Part shown: positions 12,889-62,837 of the stretch, piece by piece
How positions within the stretch are numbered: position 1 is the stretch's first letter
Layout of the letters: every line of letters starts with the position of its first letter
Source: a virus
Lineage: Duplodnaviria; Heunggongvirae; Uroviricota; Caudoviricetes
IMG/VR virus record: IMGVR_UViG_2974564184_000001
Span: 977-64,976 of that record
Reading direction: 5' to 3' (one strand)
Length of the DNA stretch: 64,000 bases
The notes under the pieces: generated by a model
Databases searched by the model: none
What the model was told of the DNA's origin: nothing
Seen by the model: the letters and a program-made list of their open reading frames with translations, nothing else
Position numbers and translations under genes: made by a program

Positions 12889-13203
12889 TTATGCGTCCAA
12901 ATCCAGTTCTTTTGCTGAGAACAGTTCATTACCCTCATAGGTAATGCCATCGACCACTGCAATGATCCGTGCAGGGATAGGGTCACCAGTCGGGCGACCA
13001 GCGTTATCGGTTTTGTACACGCGGGAGAAAGGTGCCTTTACCAGATAGGTCTCTTCCCGGGTGAAGTTGCGGGTCTGAATGGAACCACTTGACAGCTCCA
13101 CAGGGGTAAGTGCCGGAAGGAGTTTCACAATCTCAACTTCCGCACCAATCACCCCTTCGATTCCGAGATGCTCTGCCACCAAATCGCGTTTTACCTTAGG
13201 CAT
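12889..13203 (-). CDS. hypothetical protein
   Basis: 104-aa ORF. Confidence 0.4.
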   Translation of the reverse strand: MPKVKRDLVAEHLGIEGVIGAEVEIVKLLPALTPVELSSGSIQTRNFTREETYLVKAPFSRVYKTDNAGRPTGDPIPARIIAVVDGITYEGNELFSAKELDLDA

Positions 13204-13711
13204 TATTTTTCCCCTTCATTTCAAGCACGAATGCTTTGTGTTTATTGCTCTGCGGTACGCCAGTAAAGTTCACCGCGATGAAATAGTCAAGGATTTCTTC
13301 CTTGGTCGCATCTTCCAATGTTAATAATGGGAGATAGGGTCTTCCGAACGCTAACTGTTCAGACCGGGTAAGTTTTCCCCACCAGAGAGGCATTCCTTTC
13401 AGGATTATCGGGATCTCTCCGAGTATGAACTTCTGCAAAGTCATCAGACGTTGCTTACCGTCCACAACCTCAAGCCACGGCGTGTCTCTTGAGAGCCAAT
13501 TGCTGTGCTTGGCGATGGCTATTGTACCAAGAGGGAATCCAGAAATGCAAGTGTTTAAAAACTCTTGCTGCTGTTTCTTTTTCCACACGTAGTCCCTTTG
13601 GTAGGGAGCATTGTAATCGAATGCCCCACGCTCAATCCACCCAACGTAGGATTCAATCGTATGAGACCCGGGATTAACCCTGAATCTCTCGTGCTCTGTG
13701 ATCCTGTTCAC
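13196..13711 (-). CDS. DUF262 (ParB/Srx-like, GmrSD N-terminal-type) domain protein
   Basis: YQRDYVW and VVDGKQRLMTL (DGQQR-like) motifs; GTG start at 13711 with AGG RBS inferred because the long ORF overlaps upstream gene. Confidence 0.5.
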   Translation of the reverse strand: MNRITEHERFRVNPGSHTIESYVGWIERGAFDYNAPYQRDYVWKKKQQQEFLNTCISGFPLGTIAIAKHSNWLSRDTPWLEVVDGKQRLMTLQKFILGEIPIILKGMPLWWGKLTRSEQLAFGRPYLPLLTLEDATKEEILDYFIAVNFTGVPQSNKHKAFVLEMKGKNNA

Positions 13712-13724
13712 AGCATAACCTCGA

Positions 13725-14144
13725 TCATTTAATCCCGACAAGGCCGTACTCCTTACGGATCTGGTATTCGGCATCCTCATAGACAAGGCGCTGCACAGTC
13801 TCGCGCTCATCTTCCAGGCACATGTTTTCGTCCTTAACTGCCGCCTTGTATATTTGCGTTGCACGATCATACAGGTCTTCCGCCAAGGTGTCGAGAGGGT
13901 CATAGCCCAAGGCATCCTTACGGAAAATAGAGACGAAACGGTCTTCATCGTCTGTGCGCTCGTCAGCCATTTCTGGAACCACGTCGCGGTGGATGTCCCA
14001 GTAATCAAAGAGCTTGATCGCGTCCTCTGGAGATTTCAGTCCGTAAGACAGACTCTCTGTCTGATACCCAAGCCAAGTGGCAATCGCCAATAATTTCTCA
14101 CGCGGGTTTTCGTAATGTGTTGCTTCCATTATTTTCTCTCCCAT
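13725..14144 (-). CDS. hypothetical acidic protein
   Basis: 139-aa ORF. Confidence 0.45.
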   Translation of the reverse strand: MGEKIMEATHYENPREKLLAIATWLGYQTESLSYGLKSPEDAIKLFDYWDIHRDVVPEMADERTDDEDRFVSIFRKDALGYDPLDTLAEDLYDRATQIYKAAVKDENMCLEDERETVQRLVYEDAEYQIRKEYGLVGIK

Positions 14145-14398
14145 TGATTCATGTAGGTAACAAGGTCTGTCAATTTACGAGCAGTCAACGGGTGAATATC
14201 ATCACCATCCAAACCGCCATGCTTCAACATACCCACCAGTCGAGTATACACCTTTGTTGGACGAACACAACGTCTTACAGACCACACCTCGCCGTCAGGG
14301 GAGAATGATTTCTCCTCCATAGACACATGGACGAGGGTTCCCATCCATTCTTTCTTCCTAATCGACAGAAGTGGTCTGTGGTAGATGTAGAATCGCAT
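14129..14398 (-). CDS. hypothetical protein
   Basis: 89-aa ORF. Confidence 0.4.
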   Translation of the reverse strand: MRFYIYHRPLLSIRKKEWMGTLVHVSMEEKSFSPDGEVWSVRRCVRPTKVYTRLVGMLKHGGLDGDDIHPLTARKLTDLVTYMNQWERK

Positions 14399-14480
14399 TG
14401 TAGTGTCCTCTTTTCGTCACATAAGATCGTATTTTGTTCGTTGTGGTCATTATGAGGGACGTTATGGTCAGTGTCAACCC

Positions 14481-14508
14481 CAAAAACAACAAAACCCGCC
14501 GAAGCGGG
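14481..14508 (-). terminator. Rho-independent terminator (minus strand)
   Basis: CCCGC-CGAA-GCGGG hairpin with A-run on plus side; same hairpin family as at 221 and 7071. Confidence 0.6.
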
Positions 14509-14513
14509 TTAAT

Positions 14514-14795
14514 TTACCAGGTGAGGAAGAACGTTATCGTGGCACCCTGCATTGTCGGCTCGTATCCAATGATATCGAGTTGGAAACCGCCAGCACGAAG
14601 ATCACCAACAATATGGGCGCAATAATCACGCTGGTGATCCGGCAGTTCTATCGTCATTGCCGTTCCCCGGAGACCCTTCTTCGCAGCCTCCGCCACACCC
14701 TCCACAACCGCGTTGTACAGATCCGACATTTCTGTCGGCAACTGCTTTGGTGCGTTTGCGGCGATTTGTGCCATCTTTTGTGCTGCTGTTGTCAT
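14514..14795 (-). CDS. hypothetical protein
   Basis: 93-aa well-formed ORF; overlaps the low-complexity tail of the methyltransferase ORF. Confidence 0.4.
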   Translation of the reverse strand: MTTAAQKMAQIAANAPKQLPTEMSDLYNAVVEGVAEAAKKGLRGTAMTIELPDHQRDYCAHIVGDLRAGGFQLDIIGYEPTMQGATITFFLTW

Positions 14796-15309
14796 CCTTC
14801 GGCCCCTCTAAGTGATAGAATGGTTTCAGTCCCATCTTATTGTTCTTGTCCCACACAAACCATGCGTACCCTGAACCGTCTGTCTTACCGTCATCCGTGA
14901 ACGAAGGCCGTTTAGACAATACCATTAAGCTGCTCAGTGGGTTGTCCTGCCACCACTCCCATCGCTTCATGCTTTCCAGGAATCCCAGTCGTAGGAGCAT
15001 GATTACAACATCGGCTTCGCCTAATGCTTTGGTCACAAACTCTTGCGCTAAGGAGTATGGTGGGTTCGTGATGATCACATCCACATGGTTGTATTGCGTT
15101 TGAAGGTAATCGACACCCTGACGAATCTCTCCCCAAGCACTACCTAAAGGTAGGTGGTTGTAGATTCTACCGGAGCCACGGCATGGCTCCATGTATTTCA
15201 GATTGCTGTCAATAGGTATGACTTTCAGAAGGGCTTCAACAGCCCAAGCTGGAGTTTCATACACATCGTAAGCACGTCTCTCTTCCTTCTTTTTGAGAGG
15301 AGCGCTCAT
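14626..15309 (-). CDS. DNA N6-adenine methyltransferase (phage Dam-type, PF05869-like)
   Basis: YETPAWAV, EPCRGSG (motif I), IITNPPY (motif IV); conserved part ends near aa 172, 3' tail is low-complexity. Confidence 0.7.
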   Translation of the reverse strand: MSAPLKKKEERRAYDVYETPAWAVEALLKVIPIDSNLKYMEPCRGSGRIYNHLPLGSAWGEIRQGVDYLQTQYNHVDVIITNPPYSLAQEFVTKALGEADVVIMLLRLGFLESMKRWEWWQDNPLSSLMVLSKRPSFTDDGKTDGSGYAWFVWDKNNKMGLKPFYHLEGPKDDNSSTKDGTNRRKRTKAVADRNVGSVQRGCGGCGGGCEEGSPGNGNDDRTAGSPA

Positions 15310-16238
15310 TACTCTCCTTTGTCGTTCAGCAGCATATCGGTAACCACTTGCCCGTAGACCTTGAGGTTATCAATCAAGGCTTCACGCGGTGTATCACCGT
15401 TGATGGAACGTTCACTCAGGATGTCGTCACCTGCCAAGCCTGCAACCTGCACCAGAATTGCGAACAACTCTTTAGTGGCGAACTGAGCCAGGGAGGGTTC
15501 ATCCAAAGTGGCAGCATCTAAAATGTGCTCGACACCGTTGAGTTCGATACGGATCTTCACACGCTTTGGCTCTGTTGGCTCTGCGGGAGTTTCAGCCGGG
15601 GCTTCAACCTTACGCAACGACACAGGGGGTTTTCCTTGCTGCATTCGTTTGATGTTTTTAGCATCCAGTAGAACAGCATCAGCACGTTCGAGAACTTGCA
15701 TTTCGTCCATCCAGACCTGCCCCCCACCACGGATTCGTGCGATCTCTTCCTCAGACAAGATCCCGCTGTAAAAACGGTCGATCAGTCTGTCGAAGTAGAC
15801 CTTCTCGAACATGATTTGCGAGTGCATGTTTGCACCGTCACCGTATGTCCCGCCCTGATAGTTGTGGAACATGAAGATTGTCAGTGGTGACACTGTACGT
15901 TCCTCACTTGCCAACCACAAAATGGTTCCAGCAGAACAGACCTGACCTTCTGCGTGGGTAACGATGTTTGCAGCACTCTCCGCCATCGCGTTGACATAAG
16001 CCATTGCGATTGCTACTGCACCACCTGGTGAGTTAATCACGATACGGATACTGTCCTCCGGTGTTGCCATACGGATCAGTTGCAGACGCTCCTGATGATC
16101 CTCCAGCCACGACAGGTCGTCGATGTAGAGCACGTAATCATGACATGGAACCGGGTAAGAGAAGATATTCCGGTTGTCCCCGAAGCCCGGGTAGAAACCG
16201 AAGCTGTTTTCTGGGCCGCTGTTTTTGTTTTCCATCAT
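15309..16238 (-). CDS. ClpP-like serine protease
   Basis: INSPGGAVAIAMAYVNAM and GQVCSAGTILWLA match ClpP/S14 motifs; 309 aa with extended C-terminus. Confidence 0.65.
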   Translation of the reverse strand: MMENKNSGPENSFGFYPGFGDNRNIFSYPVPCHDYVLYIDDLSWLEDHQERLQLIRMATPEDSIRIVINSPGGAVAIAMAYVNAMAESAANIVTHAEGQVCSAGTILWLASEERTVSPLTIFMFHNYQGGTYGDGANMHSQIMFEKVYFDRLIDRFYSGILSEEEIARIRGGGQVWMDEMQVLERADAVLLDAKNIKRMQQGKPPVSLRKVEAPAETPAEPTEPKRVKIRIELNGVEHILDAATLDEPSLAQFATKELFAILVQVAGLAGDDILSERSINGDTPREALIDNLKVYGQVVTDMLLNDKGE

Positions 16239-16732
16239 TCCTCCGAGTTAGCAGCAATACGCTGCTTGAGAATATAGGCGTTTTTCAACAGCCAATCAAT
16301 ATTGAAACCTGTATCTTCATCCACAATGACCTGATCACTGTATTTGAAGCACTTCAAGGTTTCCTGAGCCAGTGTTGAGGCCACAGCCGCCTGATGAACA
16401 AGGGTAAACTCGTCCAACTCCTCTTTTGTGAGGGTGATGTACTTGGAATTTCCTTCCAGGTAAATCAGATGCTCCAACATGTCCCGGCGATCCGGGAACA
16501 TCCAACGAGCATCTCGTGCAGCTTCTTTCTCTCCGTAGAAAAGGCTCATGATAAAGCCTTTGTGCTGTGCGAAGAGAGAACCTGCTACGGTGAGCCGATA
16601 CAGGTTGAACAGTTGTTCCGCCTGCTGCTCAAAGAAGTCTGGTGCCACAACACCACAGTTCTTCAATTCCATCAGCTTTCGATGGGATAAAATCCCATGA
16701 ATCCCCAGTGCCATACTCCTCCTATCGAGCAA
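16235..16732 (-). CDS. hypothetical protein
   Basis: 165-aa ORF. Confidence 0.45.
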   Translation of the reverse strand: MLDRRSMALGIHGILSHRKLMELKNCGVVAPDFFEQQAEQLFNLYRLTVAGSLFAQHKGFIMSLFYGEKEAARDARWMFPDRRDMLEHLIYLEGNSKYITLTKEELDEFTLVHQAAVASTLAQETLKCFKYSDQVIVDEDTGFNIDWLLKNAYILKQRIAANSEE

Positions 16733-17036
16733 TCAGGTATTTGACCTTTCCATCGTCGCCACGGAATCCTGAATCCACCACGTAATAGGATTCATCTTCC
16801 ACGTCCACAGTATCGCCCAAGTCGAAGAGTTCTTCTCCCTGATGCTCATACTCCAAAGACTCCGTGAAGCGCTTGAAAAGACCAGTGTTATCGTCATCAG
16901 TGCAGACATTCTCAATCACACCATCGGGGTGCGTCAAGAATACCATCCCTTGGCTGATTTTAGCAACCTTCCAACCACCTTTGACTCTCACCAGGCAGTA
17001 AGACCTGTTGAGCTTATTTCTGAATTTGGATACCAC
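16722..17036 (-). CDS. hypothetical protein
   Basis: 104-aa ORF. Confidence 0.4.
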   Translation of the reverse strand: MVSKFRNKLNRSYCLVRVKGGWKVAKISQGMVFLTHPDGVIENVCTDDDNTGLFKRFTESLEYEHQGEELFDLGDTVDVEDESYYVVDSGFRGDDGKVKYLIAR

Positions 17037-17688
17037 GCTTTTTCTCCAGTTCTGTGAGGAAACTTTCGAGTGTTTGCAGTCGTTCCGGTGTGTTCAGATT
17101 CAAACAACGCACTCCATGCTGCTTCGCCAGTTTGACGGCAGTAGCTGTCCCGCCTTTTGGGTTGCCATGCTTATCTTCCGAGGCATAGAACAGGCAGAAC
17201 TTTGAAGGACGCGGCTCAAGGATGTTGGCCCCCAGAACCTGATGCACATTTCGGGAATGCAAAGCGAAAGCTCCGCGTTTACGCCGCAAGGCTTCGGGGT
17301 TCGGGTGAATCTCATCCAGAATCTTGTCTCGTGCGGATACTTGCCCGGGCATGACCAAGTTAAGGTCGCTCAGACAGATGTCCCACCAATCTTCCAGGTT
17401 ATTCGTACCAAAACCGTGCCACGGAGTGTAAATCTCCGCTTTACCAGTAGAGTACGCTTCCGGGTTATCTTTGTCAAGCGAAATACAGTACCGCTGCACT
17501 CCAATCTGGAATGCTGCGTCTGCACCACCTGCCTTCCCACTTCTCAGCACACAACCTGCTTGTGCCAATCGGAAGGCGGCATCTTCCATGATGCCAAGCA
17601 CGTCTGGAGGTGTTTCGCGTGATCCTACTCCAGTATAGTACATAATCCTCCTGTTAGGTTGCCATCGGAGTGTAGCGGCCTGCATCAC
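17014..17688 (-). CDS. DprA/Smf-like Rossmann-fold (SLOG) protein
   Basis: YTGVGSRETP...LAQAGCVLRSGKAGGADAAFQIG resembles DprA GSR...SG.A.GID.AAH signature. Confidence 0.55.
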   Translation of the reverse strand: MMQAATLRWQPNRRIMYYTGVGSRETPPDVLGIMEDAAFRLAQAGCVLRSGKAGGADAAFQIGVQRYCISLDKDNPEAYSTGKAEIYTPWHGFGTNNLEDWWDICLSDLNLVMPGQVSARDKILDEIHPNPEALRRKRGAFALHSRNVHQVLGANILEPRPSKFCLFYASEDKHGNPKGGTATAVKLAKQHGVRCLNLNTPERLQTLESFLTELEKKRGIQIQK

Positions 17689-18451
17689 GATCCGTCATCA
17701 GACCTTTCGCAATATCACGAACCATTCCACCACGAACGATGTCGTTCTCTGGGTCATCGAAGGACACCACACCCACACCTGCCAGGTTGTGACGCTCCGT
17801 GAACTCAATCAGCCATTCCAGACCGGATTTTCCGTTGATGTCTTTCTGACTGGCATCGCCCATCACTACCAGAGTACAGTTGTCAGAGATACGAGTGATG
17901 ATACTCAACATCTCTTCCGGGGTGCTCTGCTGCGCCTCGTCGATCAGGAGGTAGCTACGTTCGTCGAATGAACGACCACGGATACTTTCCAGTTCCTGAA
18001 CTTCAATGCGACCATTCAAGCCGTCTTTAAGCGCGTTGTAATAGGCTCCGTCACCCATACGCTTACGGATTGTATCCAGCATGTTTCGAACATACGGGAA
18101 TAGCTTCTCCAACGACGTTCCCGGTTTGAAGCCGGAGGTTTTACCCGTCTGCACGTAAGGACGAGCGACAATGATCTTGTCGAGGTCATTCTTACGGAGC
18201 AAGTCCGCAGCTAAAGCGGAGGCCAGGTAGGTCTTACCTGTACCGAAGATCCCTTTTGCAATGATGATGTTGCAGGTTTGCAACTTATGCAGGTAATCTT
18301 GCTGCTTCTCATTCATTGGGGAGAGCGGCGGTGCGGCTGCTCGTTCCTCGTTGAATTTCGGGTGGTGCTTTGCGGTTGTCGCGCTACGGTCAATACGTTG
18401 TTGTTGACGAGCGTCGAGTTTTCTTGCACGAGCCTCTTTGCTTCTGCCCAT
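17654..18451 (-). CDS. phoH: PhoH-like ATPase
   Basis: Walker A GIFGTGKTYLA and PhoH-like C-terminal region. Confidence 0.85.
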   Translation of the reverse strand: MGRSKEARARKLDARQQQRIDRSATTAKHHPKFNEERAAAPPLSPMNEKQQDYLHKLQTCNIIIAKGIFGTGKTYLASALAADLLRKNDLDKIIVARPYVQTGKTSGFKPGTSLEKLFPYVRNMLDTIRKRMGDGAYYNALKDGLNGRIEVQELESIRGRSFDERSYLLIDEAQQSTPEEMLSIITRISDNCTLVVMGDASQKDINGKSGLEWLIEFTERHNLAGVGVVSFDDPENDIVRGGMVRDIAKGLMTDRDAGRYTPMAT

Positions 18452-55019: not shown

Positions 55020-55110
55020 GGAGGAGCAAATCGAATGGCGACGAAAGCTGTCTTGAAAACAGTCGAGCGTGATGAGCGCCTTGGGAGTTCGACTCTCCCC
55101 TCCTCCGCCA
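55020..55110 (+). tRNA. tRNA-Ser (TGA)
   Basis: GGAGGAG...GCTGT-CTTGAAA-ACAGT, long variable arm, GGGAGTTCGACTCTCCC, CTCCTCC G CCA. Confidence 0.65.
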
Positions 55111-55126
55111 AACAACAGGGGGACTC

Positions 55127-55549
55127 ATGGAAAAACTCTGTTCTAAATGTGGTGAAACAAAGCTACTAACGGAATTTAACAAGAGTTCCAAACGTAAAGA
55201 TGGTGTCCAAGTATGGTGCAGACCTTGTACCAAGAGTGTGAATAATGAGAAGTACGCTACTGATCACACACACAGGTCAAGAATCAGGAAGAACAATGAG
55301 AAAGAAGTGCAGAAATGCAAAGACCTTCTCCTTGAGTTCAAATCTGTAGGCTGCACGTTGTGTCCTGAAAAGGAACCAGTCGCATTGGATCTTCATCATC
55401 TTGATGAAGAGACCAAAGATGCAAATGTCTCAGACCTTATGCGTCGAGGGACTAAGAAACTGATAGCAGAGATGAACAAGTGCGTTGTGTTGTGTGCCAA
55501 CTGTCACAGAAAGGTTCATGCTGGAATATTGGTGCTACCGGGTCGGTAG
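55127..55549 (+). CDS. HNH homing endonuclease
   Basis: LDLHHLDEETKDANVSDLMRR...LCANCHRKVH; lies inside tRNA cluster, 3' end overlaps next tRNA. Confidence 0.7.
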   Translation: MEKLCSKCGETKLLTEFNKSSKRKDGVQVWCRPCTKSVNNEKYATDHTHRSRIRKNNEKEVQKCKDLLLEFKSVGCTLCPEKEPVALDLHHLDEETKDANVSDLMRRGTKKLIAEMNKCVVLCANCHRKVHAGILVLPGR

Positions 55550-55615
55550 CCGAGCGGTCAGGCACCCGCCTTTTAAGCGGAAAGACGTAGGGTTCGAATC
55601 CCACCCGACCCACCA
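55540..55615 (+). tRNA. tRNA-Lys? (TTT) with Ser-like D-arm and weak T-stem
   Basis: GGGTCGG TA GCCGAGCGGTCAGGC A CCCGC-CTTTTAA-GCGGA ... GGGTTCGAATCCC ... CCGACCC A CCA. Confidence 0.4.
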
Positions 55616-55639
55616 ATTTGAAAATTAGTGAAAATAAGG

Positions 55640-55668
55640 CTTGCAGAAGATTGATTTCACTGATAAAG
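55640..55668 (+). promoter_or_regulatory. promoter TTGCAG-N17-TAAAGT (CTGATAAAGT family)
   Basis: upstream of tRNA-Asn. Confidence 0.45.
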
Positions 55669-55741
55669 TAATTACTCGATAGGGGAAAAGAGACGGCACT
55701 CTCCCTGTGACGCTGAAAGATGCAGGCCGACGAATACAAAT

Positions 55742-55827
55742 GACGAGGTGGTTCATCCGGTAGAACAGCGGACTGTTAATCCGCGAGCGAAAGCTCTATG
55801 TGGGTTCGAGTCCCACCCTCGTCGCCA
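55742..55827 (+). tRNA. tRNA-Asn (GTT) with 15-nt extra arm
   Basis: GACGAGG TG GTTC..GAAC A GCGGA-CTGTTAA-TCCGC GAGCGAAAGCTCTAT GTGGGTTCGAGTCCCAC CCTCGTC G CCA. Confidence 0.55.
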
Positions 55828-55832
55828 AATTT

Positions 55833-55907
55833 GGGAATGTGGCAGATTGGTAATGTACTCCACTGTCTATGGAGCCTATGCGAGTTCGATCCTCGTCATT
55901 CCCGCCA
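55833..55907 (+). tRNA. tRNA-Asp (GTC)
   Basis: GGGAATG...CTCCA-CTGTCTA-TGGAG...CGAGTTCGATCCTCG CATTCCC G CCA. Confidence 0.65.
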
Positions 55908-55971
55908 AAATTAGCAAGCCAGCGATACCAGTTTTAGAAATGCCTCTGGGACAATTAAAAGGCAAATATTT

Positions 55972-56048
55972 CGGAGTTTAGCTCAGTCTGGTAGAGCGCC
56001 TGGTTTGGGACCAGGAGGTCGTAGGTTCGAGTCCTGCAACTCCGACCA
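55972..56048 (+). tRNA. tRNA-Pro (TGG)
   Basis: CGGAGTT TA GCTCAGTCTGGTAGAGC G CCTGG-TTTGGGA-CCAGG...GTAGGTTCGAGTCCTGC AACTCCG A CCA. Confidence 0.75.
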
Positions 56049-56103
56049 ATAAGATTTATCGTGGGGCGATGGGTATTCAGTTAACCATGCGACGGTAAAT
56101 TCA

Positions 56104-56179
56104 TGGGGAATTAGCTCAGTTGGTAGAGCGTCTGCCTTGCACGTAGAAGGTCAAGAGTTCAAATCTCTTATTCTCCACC
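56104..56179 (+). tRNA. tRNA-Ala (TGC)
   Basis: GGGGAAT with G3:U70, loop CTTGCAC, AAGAGTTCAAATCTCTT, ATTCTCC A CCA. Confidence 0.75.
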
Positions 56180-56235
56180 ATAATGACGCCTGGGAAACTG
56201 ACATGTACGTGTCGTCTTCACTGGGCTTTTATTAT

Positions 56236-56311
56236 GCAGGTATAGTTCAACTGGACAGAGCATCAGCTTACGAAGCTGAGAATCGGGGTTCGAATCCCTG
56301 TATCTGCACCA
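56236..56311 (+). tRNA. tRNA-Arg (ACG)
   Basis: GCAGGTA...TCAGC-TTACGAA-GCTGA...CGGGGTTCGAATCCCTG TATCTGC A CCA. Confidence 0.7.
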
Positions 56312-56415
56312 AATGAAGGCTGGGATTTCTTCGTGACCTCAGCGTTAAAGAGTCCTCAAGCATCGCCTCGGCGGTGAGCTTCTCGGGTCGCACCCGGTTA
56401 ATGAGGCATTATTTA

Positions 56416-56500
56416 GGGCAAGTGGCGAAATTGGTAGACGCACCAGATTTAGGTTCTGGCGCAGAAATGTGTGAGAGTTCGAGTCTCTCCTTGCCCACCA
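56416..56500 (+). tRNA. tRNA-Leu (TAG), type II
   Basis: GGGCAAG TG GCGAAATTGGTAGACGC A CCAGA-TTTAGGT-TCTGG, variable arm, GAGAGTTCGAGTCTCTC CTTGCCC A CCA. Confidence 0.7.
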
Positions 56501-56508
56501 AACACCTC

Positions 56509-56584
56509 GGGGGTGTAACTCAGTTGGTAGAGTGCCTGTTTGAAGAACAGATGGTCACTGGTTCGAATCCAGTCGTCCCCACCA
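56509..56584 (+). tRNA. tRNA-Phe (GAA)
   Basis: GGGGGTG TA ACTCAGTTGGTAGAGT...loop TTGAAGA...ACTGGTTCGAATCCAGT CGTCCCC A CCA. Confidence 0.65.
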
Positions 56585-56686
56585 AACATTCTCTGTGATG
56601 CAGGTTCGACTCCTGTCAGGACGGCAAAGCCTTCGGGTGGCGAGGTCGTGTGCGTGATGTGGTTAACGGCAGAGAAGTCAAACAGT

Positions 56687-56768
56687 TGCGTGGTAGTGAA
56701 ACGGATATATAGATCATGTTGGCCTCATAAGCCGAAGATTGTGGGTTCGACTCCCACTCACGCATCCA
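56687..56768 (+). tRNA. tRNA-Met/Ile2? (CAT), 82 nt
   Basis: TGCGTGG...TTGGC-CTCATAA-GCCGA AGATT GTGGGTTCGACTCCCAC TCACGCA T CCA; D-arm could not be folded cleanly. Confidence 0.4.
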
Positions 56769-56811
56769 AAATTCTAATAATAATAATTCAAAATCTCCTC
56801 TCCTTTGCCTC

Positions 56812-56840
56812 GCCCCGCTCTTGCGGGGCTTTTCTTTTTC
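56812..56840 (+). terminator. Rho-independent terminator closing the tRNA island
   Basis: GCCCCGC-TCTT-GCGGGGC followed by TTTTCTTTTTC. Confidence 0.75.
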
Positions 56841-56879
56841 TGGTATCCTGTAAATCTTAAATGAATAAAGGAGACCACG

Positions 56880-58304
56880 ATGATCTACAAATACCCCCGA
56901 GATGACTTCCGTCGAGAAGCAAACATCTTACGCAGCTTCTTCCCGGCAGATGTCTACGGCGTATTGCAACGCCTGGATGCCATGATCGCGGGAGGTACGC
57001 TCACATCTCTTTTCTCAAACCGAGAAGTAAACGACCTCGATATCTATTTCCGGTCATGGGACGATTTGGAGATCTTCGTTGCGTATATGCACGACAAACA
57101 GCTCCTAAGCGGAGAGCATGACCTGACTGTTCACACAATGGGTTGGAACAAGTACAAGCGTACTTATCGTCGATTCAAGAAGTTGGATGGTATTGACTTG
57201 GCTACTCACCCATTCAAGATCGCAAGCACGAAATCAATCCGAGACCAACTGGATGGTTGCGCTCCAGAGGAAGGCGGAGAGGAAGTCTCACGTAAAATCC
57301 GCGAGATGTTTGGGATGATCAAGCCTTTTGATGAGACTGAGGATCATGCCTCGCACATCAAGATGGTTGGTATGACGGATAAGAGTGTGATGTACTCTAT
57401 GCAATCAGGCCCGGTAATGCAGGTGATTGGGTTCAGTGTCTTCGAGACACCAGAGGAGATCTTCGCCAAGTTTGATTACACGATCAATATGGGTGCTTTC
57501 TGTTTTAAGACAGAAGAGTGGCATGTGGATAACCAGTTCATGAAGCATTTAGCTCAGAAGGTGTTGGTTGTCAACCCAGCAACTGATTATCCAATCATCA
57601 GCCTCTTACGTGCTGCGAAGTACGAAGCCCGTGGCTACACAATCTCTCGCCGCGAGGCGATGAAGTTGGGTCTGGCTATGACCAAGTTGGAGATCTCTTC
57701 TTGGGAGGACGCCAAGAAACACCTGAGCGGAATGTACGGGACAAATGTTGAAACACTCTTCAATGAGGAAAGGCCGTTTTCATTTGAACTGTTATTTGAT
57801 AAACTGGACACTGCTGGTGAAAAAACAATCTCGATGATTGCCACTGACAAGGAGAAAGGTGATCGTGCCAAGATCAACCATATCTCTCTTGAGCCAGTTG
57901 GACAGTTCACGGTATTGAACACATTGCGCTACCATACAGGTCGCCCACATTACAGCAAGATGTGGGGAGTCTGCAAAAGCAAAGACTTCTACTTGCTTGA
58001 ACCAGAGAAGTCACGACAGAAGATTCACGTTGGCATGACCAATGTGGATAGTGACTTCCACCACCATGTGGAGCTTTTCTTTGACGAGGAAGACGCCCGT
58101 GGACGGTACGAGCAATTGGGGAAAAAGCCAATGGATGGTGGTGCAGTGCTGTTGCAGGTTGACATCCTCAATCTGAAACACCTTCATCAGAAAGACCACG
58201 ACACCGGGTCGGTAAACATGAACGTTAAAGGCGGTCACGTCAAACGTACTGAACCATCCGCTGTCATCCGCAAGTACATCGAAAGCAATGGAGATTTTAC
58301 GTGA
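56880..58304 (+). CDS. nucleotidyltransferase-fold protein of unknown function
   Basis: AAAGGAG RBS; IAGGTLTSLFSNREVNDLDIYF resembles hG[GS]-x9-13-DhD pol-beta NTase motif; 474 aa. Confidence 0.45.
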   Translation: MIYKYPRDDFRREANILRSFFPADVYGVLQRLDAMIAGGTLTSLFSNREVNDLDIYFRSWDDLEIFVAYMHDKQLLSGEHDLTVHTMGWNKYKRTYRRFKKLDGIDLATHPFKIASTKSIRDQLDGCAPEEGGEEVSRKIREMFGMIKPFDETEDHASHIKMVGMTDKSVMYSMQSGPVMQVIGFSVFETPEEIFAKFDYTINMGAFCFKTEEWHVDNQFMKHLAQKVLVVNPATDYPIISLLRAAKYEARGYTISRREAMKLGLAMTKLEISSWEDAKKHLSGMYGTNVETLFNEERPFSFELLFDKLDTAGEKTISMIATDKEKGDRAKINHISLEPVGQFTVLNTLRYHTGRPHYSKMWGVCKSKDFYLLEPEKSRQKIHVGMTNVDSDFHHHVELFFDEEDARGRYEQLGKKPMDGGAVLLQVDILNLKHLHQKDHDTGSVNMNVKGGHVKRTEPSAVIRKYIESNGDFT

Positions 58305-62210: not shown

Positions 62211-62837
62211 ATGAAATACAAAAGTATTGCTGACCTTCCTGCATCGGTATCTGATCTGTCTCTCGTTCAGAAGAGCAAGGTGCTGAAAATTGCGAACGGC
62301 CTGATTGATTCAGGCCAGTCTCCTGACAACGCTATCGAGAAAGCCTGCAAAGACGTTCTCCATATCGGTCTTGTGAAGACAGCAATCCAGAAGGATGCCA
62401 AGCCAGTGGCGGTCATTAAGGATGCAGATGAGCAGATGATTTCTTACGAAGTTATCTACGAACCAAACTCCAAAGATGCCCACGGCGAATGGATGTCTTC
62501 TGATACAATTTCAAAAGGTAAGGACAGCTTCGACGCTGCTCGTGCTGCGGGTCTTGTAAAAGAGAACCTGTTCCACATCGTTGAGACTGACGCCTTCACG
62601 ATTGAGAAGACCTGGATTCAAGAAGAATTCGATGTCGTGGTTATCGGAAGTGAGCAGATTATCAAAGCTGGCACTTGGGTAGCCAAAGTCAAATACAATG
62701 ATCCTGAACTGTGGCTCTTGAAAAAGGCCAACGCTGTTGGTGGTCTCAGCATTCAATGCTCTGGCTTCACTGACGAAGAGACTGGTGAAATCACCGGACT
62801 CGACTTCGGGATCGAACTTGTCACCGAGGAAAACTAA
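62211..62837 (+). CDS. prohead protease (S78/HK97-like)
   Basis: KDAHGEWMSS (His) and GGLSIQCSGF (Ser) catalytic motifs; position after portal. Confidence 0.65.
   Translation: MKYKSIADLPASVSDLSLVQKSKVLKIANGLIDSGQSPDNAIEKACKDVLHIGLVKTAIQKDAKPVAVIKDADEQMISYEVIYEPNSKDAHGEWMSSDTISKGKDSFDAARAAGLVKENLFHIVETDAFTIEKTWIQEEFDVVVIGSEQIIKAGTWVAKVKYNDPELWLLKKANAVGGLSIQCSGFTDEETGEITGLDFGIELVTEEN

Follow-up and report, generated by a model that had tools for sequence, protein, structure and literature searches.

Positions 14,514 to 16,238 of the 64,000-nucleotide stretch of Caudoviricetes DNA analysed here (the window; positions 977 to 64,976 of IMG/VR record IMGVR_UViG_2974564184_000001) raise two questions: which role is played by the ClpP-like protease gene found there, gp038, and whether the methyltransferase gene that follows it, gp037, really overlaps a 93-codon open reading frame (ORF93) or merely ends in the trace of a frameshift. 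The explanation that we favour, with a probability of about 0.6, is that gp038 encodes an accessory peptidase with the ClpP fold, that gp037 encodes a compact amino-methyltransferase of the NPPY type extended by a read-through tail, and that ORF93 is a genuine gene. The bases 14300-16800 of the window are 100% identical to the published genome of Erwinia phage Hena1 (NC_048828.1/MN732867.1; Vequintavirinae, Henunavirus), a window coordinate being the Hena1 record coordinate minus 976. What a first-pass annotation, made from the sequence, had described in this stretch is accurate but largely ordinary for the phage subfamily, the ClpP-like and methyltransferase genes being already annotated and conserved. 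What is new is the missed gene ORF93, an answer to the overlap question and three features of the ClpP-like protein, i.e. a Gln in the catalytic triad, a missing ClpX/ClpA docking pocket and a C-terminal domain peculiar to its family. None of these findings overturns current understanding.

The ClpP-like gene is a true gene, present in the existing annotation and conserved throughout the Vequintavirinae, so that the relatives do keep it. The two ClpP catalytic-region motifs that had been recognised in it, INSPGGAVAIAMAYVNAM and GQVCSAGTILWLA, are both present, and its product matches PF00574 (Clp_protease) above threshold (E-value 1.6e-12; 48.1 bits vs. a cut-off of 20.2), over residues 51-141 only. 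Its best PHROGs are two 'ATP-dependent protease' families, phrog_5410 (1.6e-102) and phrog_1827 (2.8e-41). Ninety-four close homologues were found in a large protein database, many of them on contigs of ~120-150 kb, and the named ones belong to Vequintavirinae phages. At the level of the protease domain, tblastn retrieved 831 phage genome records, nearly all annotated 'ATP-dependent Clp protease', from Vequintavirinae, ICP1, Pakpunavirus, Otagovirus-like Pseudomonas phages, Sugarlandvirus (T5-like), Schizotequatrovirus (KVP40-like) and others. ClpP-like genes are thus present in hundreds of large lytic phages. The literature on them turned up annotations alone, with no functional study found, and the gene has no match in PADLOC, so that neither search yielded evidence on the part of host-proteostasis hijacker or anti-defence protease suggested for it at first; in the rV5 gene table, for instance, the homologue ORF122 is entered only as 'ClpP (ATP-dependent) protease subunit' (PMC3606486). 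Concerning its start, two adjacent ATGs open the gene (window 16233..16238, minus strand; GGAGGAATGATGG), of which GenBank uses the second, at 16235, giving 308 amino acids.

As a whole, the protease domain has the architecture of bacterial ClpP. The AlphaFold model of gp038, for which 26 homologues were used, has a mean predicted local distance difference test (pLDDT) score of 82, residues 31-200 being mostly at 88-96 with a dip to 76-81 at 121-140. Compared by Foldseek with the ClpP structures of the PDB, it gave template modelling (TM) scores of 0.7-0.78 and a root-mean-square deviation of ~2.5 Å over 165-172 aligned columns, against chains of 172-195 residues; ClpP is matched nearly full length, long handle helix included. 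In the 26-sequence alignment, where identity goes down to 39%, the invariant residues are Ser102, His125, G72-G73 (in the NSPGG oxyanion motif), E97, G98, W176 and R185. The whole-domain fold, the handle helix, the catalytic Ser and His and the NSPGG motif are therefore held in common with bacterial ClpP (MEROPS S14, PF00574; E. coli ClpP, PDB 1TYF), from which gp038 differs in its triad acid, its docking surface, its N-terminus and its additional C-terminal domain.

With regard to the active site, a complete Ser/His/Asp triad had been assumed at first. Its Ser and His stand, Ser102 and His125 being paired by both HMMER and hhalign with Ser97 and His122 of E. coli ClpP, but the position of the Asp, Asp171 in E. 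coli, aligns to Gln174. This column was read from the 26-sequence alignment extended with rV5, CR9, ICP1, Va3, a Pakpunavirus and a Sugarlandvirus. It is occupied by Gln in Hena1 and in most Henuna-, Seuna- and Mydoviruses, by Glu in rV5, CR9 and the Pakpunavirus SPA01, and by Asp in ICP1, Va3 and Spivey. The surrounding pattern, [D/E/Q]-x-[W/Y/F]-[L/M/I], is that of the D171-R-F-L motif of E. coli, the variable acid standing two residues before a conserved aromatic. In the model, a helix (163-170), a strand (174-178) and a second helix (179-185) succeed one another, a register that fits the secondary structure of ClpP, with Gln174 at the Asp171 position. The Hena1 triad would then read Ser-His-Gln, where family S14 has Ser-His-Asp. 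The other phage 'ATP-dependent Clp protease' genes (phrog_5410 and phrog_1827: rV5 ORF122, ICP1 ORF211, those of the KVP40 type, of Pakpunavirus and of Sugarlandvirus) share with gp038 the protease domain and a non-structural location, often near PhoH, but carry Asp or Glu where Hena1 carries Gln.

Directly before the triad-acid position stands an invariant Gly-Gly pair (G172-G173; window 15720..15725, minus strand). In S. aureus ClpP, the neighbours of the triad Asp are an acidic residue and an Arg through which the stacking of the rings is coupled to catalysis, and the Gly-Gly pair hints at a different ring-to-ring coupling in the phage protein.

A second difference from E. coli ClpP lies in the surface facing the unfoldases. 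In the hhalign alignment, the E. coli residues Y60, Y62, F82, I90, M92, F112 and L114 correspond to R65, V67, E87, H95, E97, T115 and S117, several of which are invariant or nearly so among the 26 homologues, and a gap of five residues is found in the phage sequence opposite E. coli 45-49 (AQMLF), L48 and F49 included. These E. coli residues are those of the hydrophobic pocket that binds the IGF/LGF loops of ClpX and ClpA, as well as acyldepsipeptides (ADEPs). Judged from this alignment, the ClpX/ClpA docking pocket is replaced in gp038 by conserved polar residues. The first 25 residues, Gly- and aromatic-rich and of low pLDDT, are likewise unlike the N-terminal loops of ClpP and appear disordered.

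Finally, the model joins the protease domain, through a disordered Pro/Glu/Ala-rich linker, to a C-terminal domain of 86 residues. No Pfam match was found for it, and the PDB yielded only insignificant ones, to SARAH and GINS helices, with E-values of 0.08 or more. A profile of the domain, searched against 1.84 billion representative proteins, gave seven matches, namely two short fragments and five proteins of 304-375 amino acids, of which three had been collected before as homologues of the ClpP-like protein. At the sensitivity of HMMER, the domain was thus found in no other protein context, and it is, over the proteins searched, confined to this ClpP-like group. A visual impression of a SAP/HeH-like helix-loop-helix within it was left unsupported and is not retained.

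An accessory, non-capsid role of gp038 is likely, because the head module has its own S78_2 protease, because homologues of gp038 lie in non-structural regions of T4-like and T5-like phages and because mass spectrometry of rV5 virions, which detected 19 proteins, did not list the homologue ORF122 (PMC3606486). In all five relatives inspected, the location of the homologue is non-structural. In ICP1 and CR9 it lies downstream of PhoH; in Va3 it is flanked by the dihydrofolate reductase gene and by one whose annotation is recombination and repair protein; in Spivey its neighbour bears the annotation 'putative deoxynucleotide monophosphate'; and in SPA01 it stands amid small hypothetical genes. 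In Schizotequatrovirus, Sugarlandvirus, ICP1 and Pakpunavirus, the homologues are placed among replication and nucleotide-metabolism genes.

The nearness of PhoH deserves a separate mention. In the Vequintavirinae (window 15309..18451) and in ICP1, a PhoH-like gene is located 1-2 kb upstream of the ClpP-like gene, and in Alteromonas phage V22 the PhoH-like and Clp protease genes are consecutive (coding sequences CDS-146 and CDS-147; PMC7289586). No PhoH was seen near the ClpP-like gene in the KVP40-like, Sugarlandvirus and Pakpunavirus examples. The linkage could reflect shared ancestry or a functional link.

On the favoured explanation, gp038 would be an accessory serine peptidase of the ClpP fold, in which Ser102 as nucleophile, His125 as general base and the NSPGG motif are all retained. 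It would form a ring-shaped protease working without the host unfoldases ClpX and ClpA, its activity may be low or dependent on a partner, and its C-terminal domain would recruit a substrate or a partner.

Several points weigh against this. Alignment and secondary-structure register, and not coordinates, are the source of both the equivalence of Asp171 and Gln174 and the missing docking pocket: hhalign ended at residue 161, MAFFT misaligned the C-terminus of E. coli ClpP, and sequence searches with relatives stopped short of the Asp region. A Gln at the triad position could also mean that gp038 is inactive. Prohead proteases are often absent from mature virions, which makes the rV5 mass-spectrometry negative a weak one. 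Also, the best NCBIfam match of gp038 is a ClpP-related head-maturation domain, though below its cut-off, and with head-maturation PHROG matches reaching 1e-22 a descent of gp038 from a capsid protease is possible.

Were Gln174 to abolish catalysis, gp038 would be dead or latent: a decoy or poison subunit that titrates host Clp or co-assembles with it, or a subunit active only when mixed with host ClpP. The handle helix is kept, and the invariant Gly-Gly pair occupies the place of the ring-coupling residues of S. aureus ClpP. A precedent exists in ClpP1 of Listeria monocytogenes, which has Asn for Asp172, has no chaperone-binding motif at its N-terminus and forms an inactive heptamer, active only with ClpP2 (PMC5361862). 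With this protein gp038 has in common the amide at the triad Asp and the absence of that N-terminal motif, but its amide is Gln and not Asn and it bears an extra C-terminal domain, ClpP1 being for its part a cellular paralogue that acts in a ClpP1/ClpP2 hetero-complex with ClpX. We regard a dead or latent gp038 as unlikely, since the conservation of Ser102 and His125, together with the Asp or Glu kept by many relatives, argues for retained catalysis, and since a ClpX/ClpA-facing surface so unlike that of ClpP makes titration of those unfoldases unlikely. The invariance of Ser and His makes a ClpP-fold peptidase without canonical unfoldase docking more likely than an inactive decoy.

A bolder idea, which we hold only tentatively and consider improbable, is that gp038 represents a new functional type of protease, in which a Ser-His-Gln ring, with a conserved charged surface (R65, E87, H95, E97) in place of the ClpX/ClpA docking surface, would be switched on only by a partner and degrade specific host proteins during takeover. 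The switch would be its own C-terminal domain once bound to the target, or a mixed complex with host ClpP, and the targets would be host defence or proteostasis factors. If this were true, the PhoH-ClpP linkage of the Vequintavirinae, ICP1 and V22 would reflect a shared takeover module. Whether such proteins act with or without host unfoldases is a matter on which testable hypotheses can be built from the triad acid, which may be Asp, Glu or Gln, from the missing docking pocket and from the C-terminal domain.

The remaining alternative for gp038 is that it is the capsid (prohead) maturation protease, or a second one, whose C-terminal domain would target the procapsid as in ClpP-type protease-scaffold fusions. 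Its best NCBIfam matches are indeed ClpP-related head-maturation models (NF045542, 7e-14; NF045540, 4e-12), several 'head maturation protease' PHROG families match it at 1e-22 to 1e-8, and the extra domain does follow a flexible linker. However, the NCBIfam scores are far under the cut-offs (52 bits vs. 120 for NF045542) and the PHROG matches are weaker than those to the 'ATP-dependent protease' families. What gp038 shares with the ClpP-related head maturation proteases (NF045542; phrog_1684, phrog_94 and others) is a detectable homology of the protease core; it differs from them in scoring below the family cut-off and in lying outside the head module, 46 kb away and on the opposite strand, where its operon also includes PhoH, DprA-like and methyltransferase genes. 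The canonical position in the head module is taken by an S78_2 protease: the prohead protease that the first-pass annotation had placed at 62211, ~46 kb away, is borne out by its match to PF14550 and by its neighbours, a Mu-type portal gene on one side and, on the other, the genes for the scaffold-like, decoration and major capsid proteins. T4-like and T5-like phages use other prohead proteases, and the gp038 homologues found in such phages are among replication genes. As had been proposed from the outset, a capsid maturation function for gp038 is therefore unlikely. The label 'early' given to the region is, for its part, a matter of gene position only.

Concerning the prohead protease gene itself, its best PHROG, phrog_1530 (3e-57, profile positions 172-372 only), is labelled 'DNA methyltransferase', a label probably inherited from fusion proteins and one that could mislead automatic annotation.

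The second gene, gp037, comprises 227 codons (14626..15309, minus strand) and is already annotated in Hena1. Its core of 170 residues contains motif I, EPCRGSG (residues 41-47), and motif IV, NPPY (82-85), which comes 35 residues later. Among 34 homologues, T81-N82-P83-P84, E41-P42-C43 and R134-P135-S136-F137 are invariant and Y85 is conserved, one homologue having NPPF. The model (pLDDT 88) matches the class I methyltransferase fold at E-values of ~1e-5, the matches including the gamma-type N6-methyladenine (m6A) DNA methyltransferases HsdM, CamA, M.BseCI and PacII and, about equally, the RNA enzymes PH1948 and Dim1. All Pfam matches are below threshold, i.e. EcoRI_methylase (0.004), Dam PF05869 (0.044; 13.9 bits vs. 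a cut-off of 28.1) and Eco57I (0.07), and NCBIfam gave no DNA methyltransferase match. The earlier description as 'PF05869-like' is thus not upheld, and that as 'Dam-type' has weak support, the fold being that of a generic NPPY amino-methyltransferase. From fold and motifs, gp037 is an NPPY amino-methyltransferase, probably with DNA adenine as its substrate (m6A).

By its motif I followed by NPPY and by its class I fold, gp037 resembles the small phage NPPY methyltransferases of phrog_799, which are distant relatives of Pfam Dam PF05869; one distant gp037 homologue carries a precomputed PF05869 match. From Dam PF05869 and the gamma-type m6A enzymes it differs by its sub-threshold score and its clade-specific tail. 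No recognisable target-recognition domain was found in the 170-residue core. A close relative of Hena1, the metagenome contig SRR15809223_3956 (2501..3560), has a methyltransferase of 169 amino acids of which the first ~113 residues are identical and the C-terminal third is different, ORF93 being replaced there by an unrelated gene of 192 amino acids; this suggests recombination within the methyltransferase gene.

As for ORF93, it is a gene in its own right, which has a separate Shine-Dalgarno site and a separate ATG. By tblastn, homologues were found in 190 phage records, those listed being almost all Vequintavirinae. In rV5, the homologue is an annotated gene of 94 amino acids, gp119, which overlaps a methyltransferase gene of 177 codons by ATGA only. 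On another metagenome contig (L019), a full-length homologue of 94 amino acids overlaps by 22 nucleotides a methyltransferase gene of 182 codons. The N-terminal half of ORF93, which contains QLPTEMSDLYNAVVEGVAEAAK, is therefore conserved with or without methyltransferase read-through. The Shine-Dalgarno site is kept as GGAGGG in relatives, and the terminator after ORF93 is conserved in Henuna-, Seuna- and Mydovirus and in TH18. No match to ORF93 was found in Pfam, NCBIfam, PADLOC or the PDB. The genes following the methyltransferase in CR9 and in SRR15809223_3956 are unrelated to ORF93.

Conserved as it is, ORF93 is absent from the Hena1 record, and it is truncated or unannotated in the records of several relatives. 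Seu621 also leaves it unannotated, and pEp_SNUABM_01, 4MG, GAP31, Mydo, FENT2 and TH18 have it as a stub of 40-49 amino acids, called from an internal start with a smaller overlap. For this reason PHROGs holds two families for one gene, phrog_12158 (94 amino acids, full length) and phrog_15143 (a 49-residue stub, covering residues 47-93 only), the latter of which seems to have come about because gene callers avoid the overlap. In the large protein database only one other copy of ORF93 was found, presumably for the same reason, i.e. gene callers skipping or truncating the overlapped frame.

The NPPY motif, the tail sequence GCGGCGGGCEEGSPGNG and the overlap with 14514..14795 were all recovered where they had been described. 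The overlap is of exactly 170 nucleotides, with ORF93 in the +1 frame relative to the methyltransferase, and the tail contains NVGSVQR and GCGGCGGGCEEGSPGNGNDDR. Such a tail is found only in the Henunavirus/Seunavirus/Mydovirus clade. Among the homologues listed, the 28 closest cluster representatives, with the extension, have 194-227 amino acids, and nearly all others 160-200, mostly 160-180; many metagenome clusters have methyltransferases of 225-227 amino acids. In eight of the nine long-tail genomes, from at least three genera, the frame relation and the stop column are the same, FENT2 stopping seven codons earlier. The stop, TGA, is formed by a T-ending codon and the invariant Asp codon of ORF93. 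Compared with its orthologues, the Hena1 methyltransferase is thus of the length seen in sister genera (226-227 amino acids), ORF93 is present, and the tail is not conserved as a protein.

This last point comes from the ratio of non-synonymous to synonymous differences (pN/pS), pooled over eight genomes. Within the overlap, the frame of ORF93 has a value of 0.60, that of the tail 1.35 and the unused one 1.24, and the two halves of the overlap behave alike; in the part of ORF93 downstream of the overlap, it is 0.33. The synonymous divergence of ORF93 is 0.51 inside the overlap and 0.55 outside. Since the tail frame behaves about like the unused one, no selection on the amino acids that it encodes is apparent, and conservation of the tail as a protein was discarded.

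Two other observations suggest that the tail frame is nevertheless read by the ribosome. When ORF93 was recoded synonymously with local codon usage, the tail frame stayed open for at least 54 codons in only 1-3% of the simulations per lineage. Also, the third positions of ORF93, which are the first codon positions of the tail, are T-poor and G-rich in the overlap, with 4-8 T out of 54 (7-15%) vs. 12-17 out of 36 (33-47%) downstream, a difference significant within each genome (Fisher p from 0.018 to 0.0002). In rV5, which has no long overlap, no such skew was found (15/54 vs. 10/36; p = 1). The tail would then be a translated hydrophilic extension, probably disordered, from which stops and the other codons beginning with T (Phe, Leu, Ser, Tyr, Cys, Trp) are kept out, with no further constraint. 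The pN/pS neutrality of the tail and the existence of relatives with shorter tails (methyltransferases of 194-220 amino acids) sit uneasily, however, with a compositional signal of selection.

How the overlap arose may be read from the junction. The distance from the in-frame GAG of the Shine-Dalgarno site to the TGA of ATGA is 12 nucleotides in rV5 (GTA GAC CTG AAA) and 11 in the long-tail phages. Most likely, an ancient change of one nucleotide at the gene junction was responsible: a shortening of the spacer by one nucleotide in the Henunavirus/Seunavirus/Mydovirus clade would have put the ancestral ATGA stop out of frame, so that translation would run for ~55 codons through the 5' half of ORF93 and add a hydrophilic tail, probably disordered and free to vary in sequence. 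The junctions compared are very divergent, which tells against pressing this scenario too far.

The arrangement resembles the overprinted gene overlaps that result from stop-codon loss in phage operons: both frames are open, the layout is conserved across genera, the older frame (ORF93) is under purifying selection and the newer one, the tail, is of low complexity and varies freely. It differs from them in that the tail is without protein-sequence constraint and that the length of the methyltransferase varies from 194 to 227 amino acids.

Of the two possibilities first considered, a real overlap or the trace of a frameshift, the former is thus retained, in several independently sequenced genera, and a sequencing error is not. 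That the 227-codon frame is an artefact, due to a sequencing or assembly indel near 14795 or to a programmed +1 frameshift fusing the methyltransferase to ORF93, as the low-complexity, unconserved tail, the +1 frame of ORF93 and the ~170-residue methyltransferases of rV5 and most homologues might invite one to think, is hardly credible, given the same frame relation and the same ORF93 codon for the stop in many independently sequenced genomes of at least three genera, the own, conserved Shine-Dalgarno site and ATG of ORF93, its existence as a separate gene in rV5 and on contig L019, the lack of an obvious slippery site on reading the Hena1 junction (in Hena1 only) and a compositional skew restricted to the long-tail lineages, such as reading of the tail frame would lead one to expect.

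The coordinates of these features, together with those of the surrounding elements, are collected in Table 1.

Table 1. Features of the ClpP-like/methyltransferase/ORF93 locus and of the prohead protease gene, in window coordinates.
Feature	Position	Strand	Basis or remark
165-amino-acid gene, phrog_7224	16235..16732	-	position kept in relatives; TGA stop overlaps first ATG of ClpP-like gene
ClpP-like gene gp038, 309 amino acids from first ATG	15309..16238	-	PF00574, phrog_5410
ClpP-fold protease domain, ~residues 27-200, handle helix 135-157	15639..16160	-	AlphaFold model and Foldseek
Ser102 codon	15933..15935	-	aligned to catalytic Ser97 of E. coli ClpP; invariant in 26 homologues
His125 codon	15864..15866	-	aligned to catalytic His122 of E. 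coli ClpP; invariant in 26 homologues
Gln174 codon, putative position of catalytic Asp171 of E. coli ClpP	15717..15719	-	alignment and secondary-structure register
C-terminal domain of gp038, residues 224-309 (86 amino acids), beta-hairpin and helices	15312..15569	-	model
Methyltransferase gp037 core, residues 1-170	14800..15309	-	phrog_799 2.9e-75 ('DNA methyltransferase'); class I fold
Shine-Dalgarno GAGGGG of ORF93	14803..14808	-	within methyltransferase Leu-Glu-Gly codons, 7 nucleotides upstream of ATG
Methyltransferase tail, 57 codons and TGA, Gly/Asp/Arg/Asn-rich	14626..14799	-	-1 frame of 5' half of ORF93
ORF93, 93 amino acids	14514..14795	-	tblastn, rV5 gp119, phrog_12158, pN/pS
Intrinsic terminator	14483..14510	-	AACCCGC-TTCG-GCGGGTT then T-run; starts 3 nucleotides after ORF93 stop
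Sigma-70-like promoter of next gene (14129..14398)	14449..14477	-	TTGACA-17-CATAAT, 11/12 matches; TTGACA kept in relatives
Probable prohead protease (Peptidase_S78_2, XkdF-like)	62211..62837	+	PF14550, E-value 3.9e-15, 56.4 bits (cut-off 24)

With this stretch a conserved non-structural operon of the Vequintavirinae reaches its 3' end, composed of the 165-amino-acid protein, the ClpP-like protein, the methyltransferase, ORF93 and the terminator. From ~11.6 to 19 kb, all genes are on the minus strand. In the order of transcription, they encode an endolysin, a PhoH-like protein, a DprA-like protein, proteins of 104 and 165 amino acids, gp038 and gp037, after which come a gap left unannotated in Hena1, small genes and the CCA-adding enzyme. 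The gene order of the stretch is shared by pEp_SNUABM_01, 4MG, GAP31, rV5, Mydo, Seu621, FENT2, TH18, CR9 and two metagenome contigs. In nucleotide sequence, the region is ~78% identical to Erwinia phages pEp_SNUABM_01, pEa_SNUABM_55 and pEa_SNUABM_56 and alignable in part with 4MG, GAP31 and EC152. The ATG of the methyltransferase overlaps the TAA stop of the ClpP-like gene (TAATG), and the ATG of the latter overlaps the TGA of the upstream gene; because of these stop/start overlaps along the operon, the 165-amino-acid, ClpP-like and methyltransferase genes look translationally coupled. No Pfam, PDB or PADLOC match was found for the 165-amino-acid protein.

An odd arrangement was seen in Salmonella phage NINP13076 (MZ326168.1, 156873-161329), where the methyltransferase frame is without its N-terminus and ORF93 matches two places in the record. 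There, a broken terminator after ORF93 is directly followed by methyltransferase-coding sequence (ITNPPYSLAQEFV), which suggests that, close to where the record ends, there is a terminal duplication or a fault of assembly.

Two further observations concern other parts of the window. The 171-amino-acid protein encoded at 13196..13711 (minus strand) consists of a DUF262/GmrSD_N (ParB-like nuclease N-terminal) domain alone (Pfam 2e-18); its best PADLOC match is NsnA (1e-14), and it resembles half of a defence-type nuclease, here in a lytic phage. In the list of open reading frames, this gene also appears as a 270-codon variant starting from TTG, which overlaps the next upstream gene (13725..14144). 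On the plus strand, at least ten transfer RNA genes are densely clustered at ~55020..56770 (record 55996..57744), just upstream of the lysis and terminase genes, and a small gene for an HNH endonuclease is inserted into the cluster.

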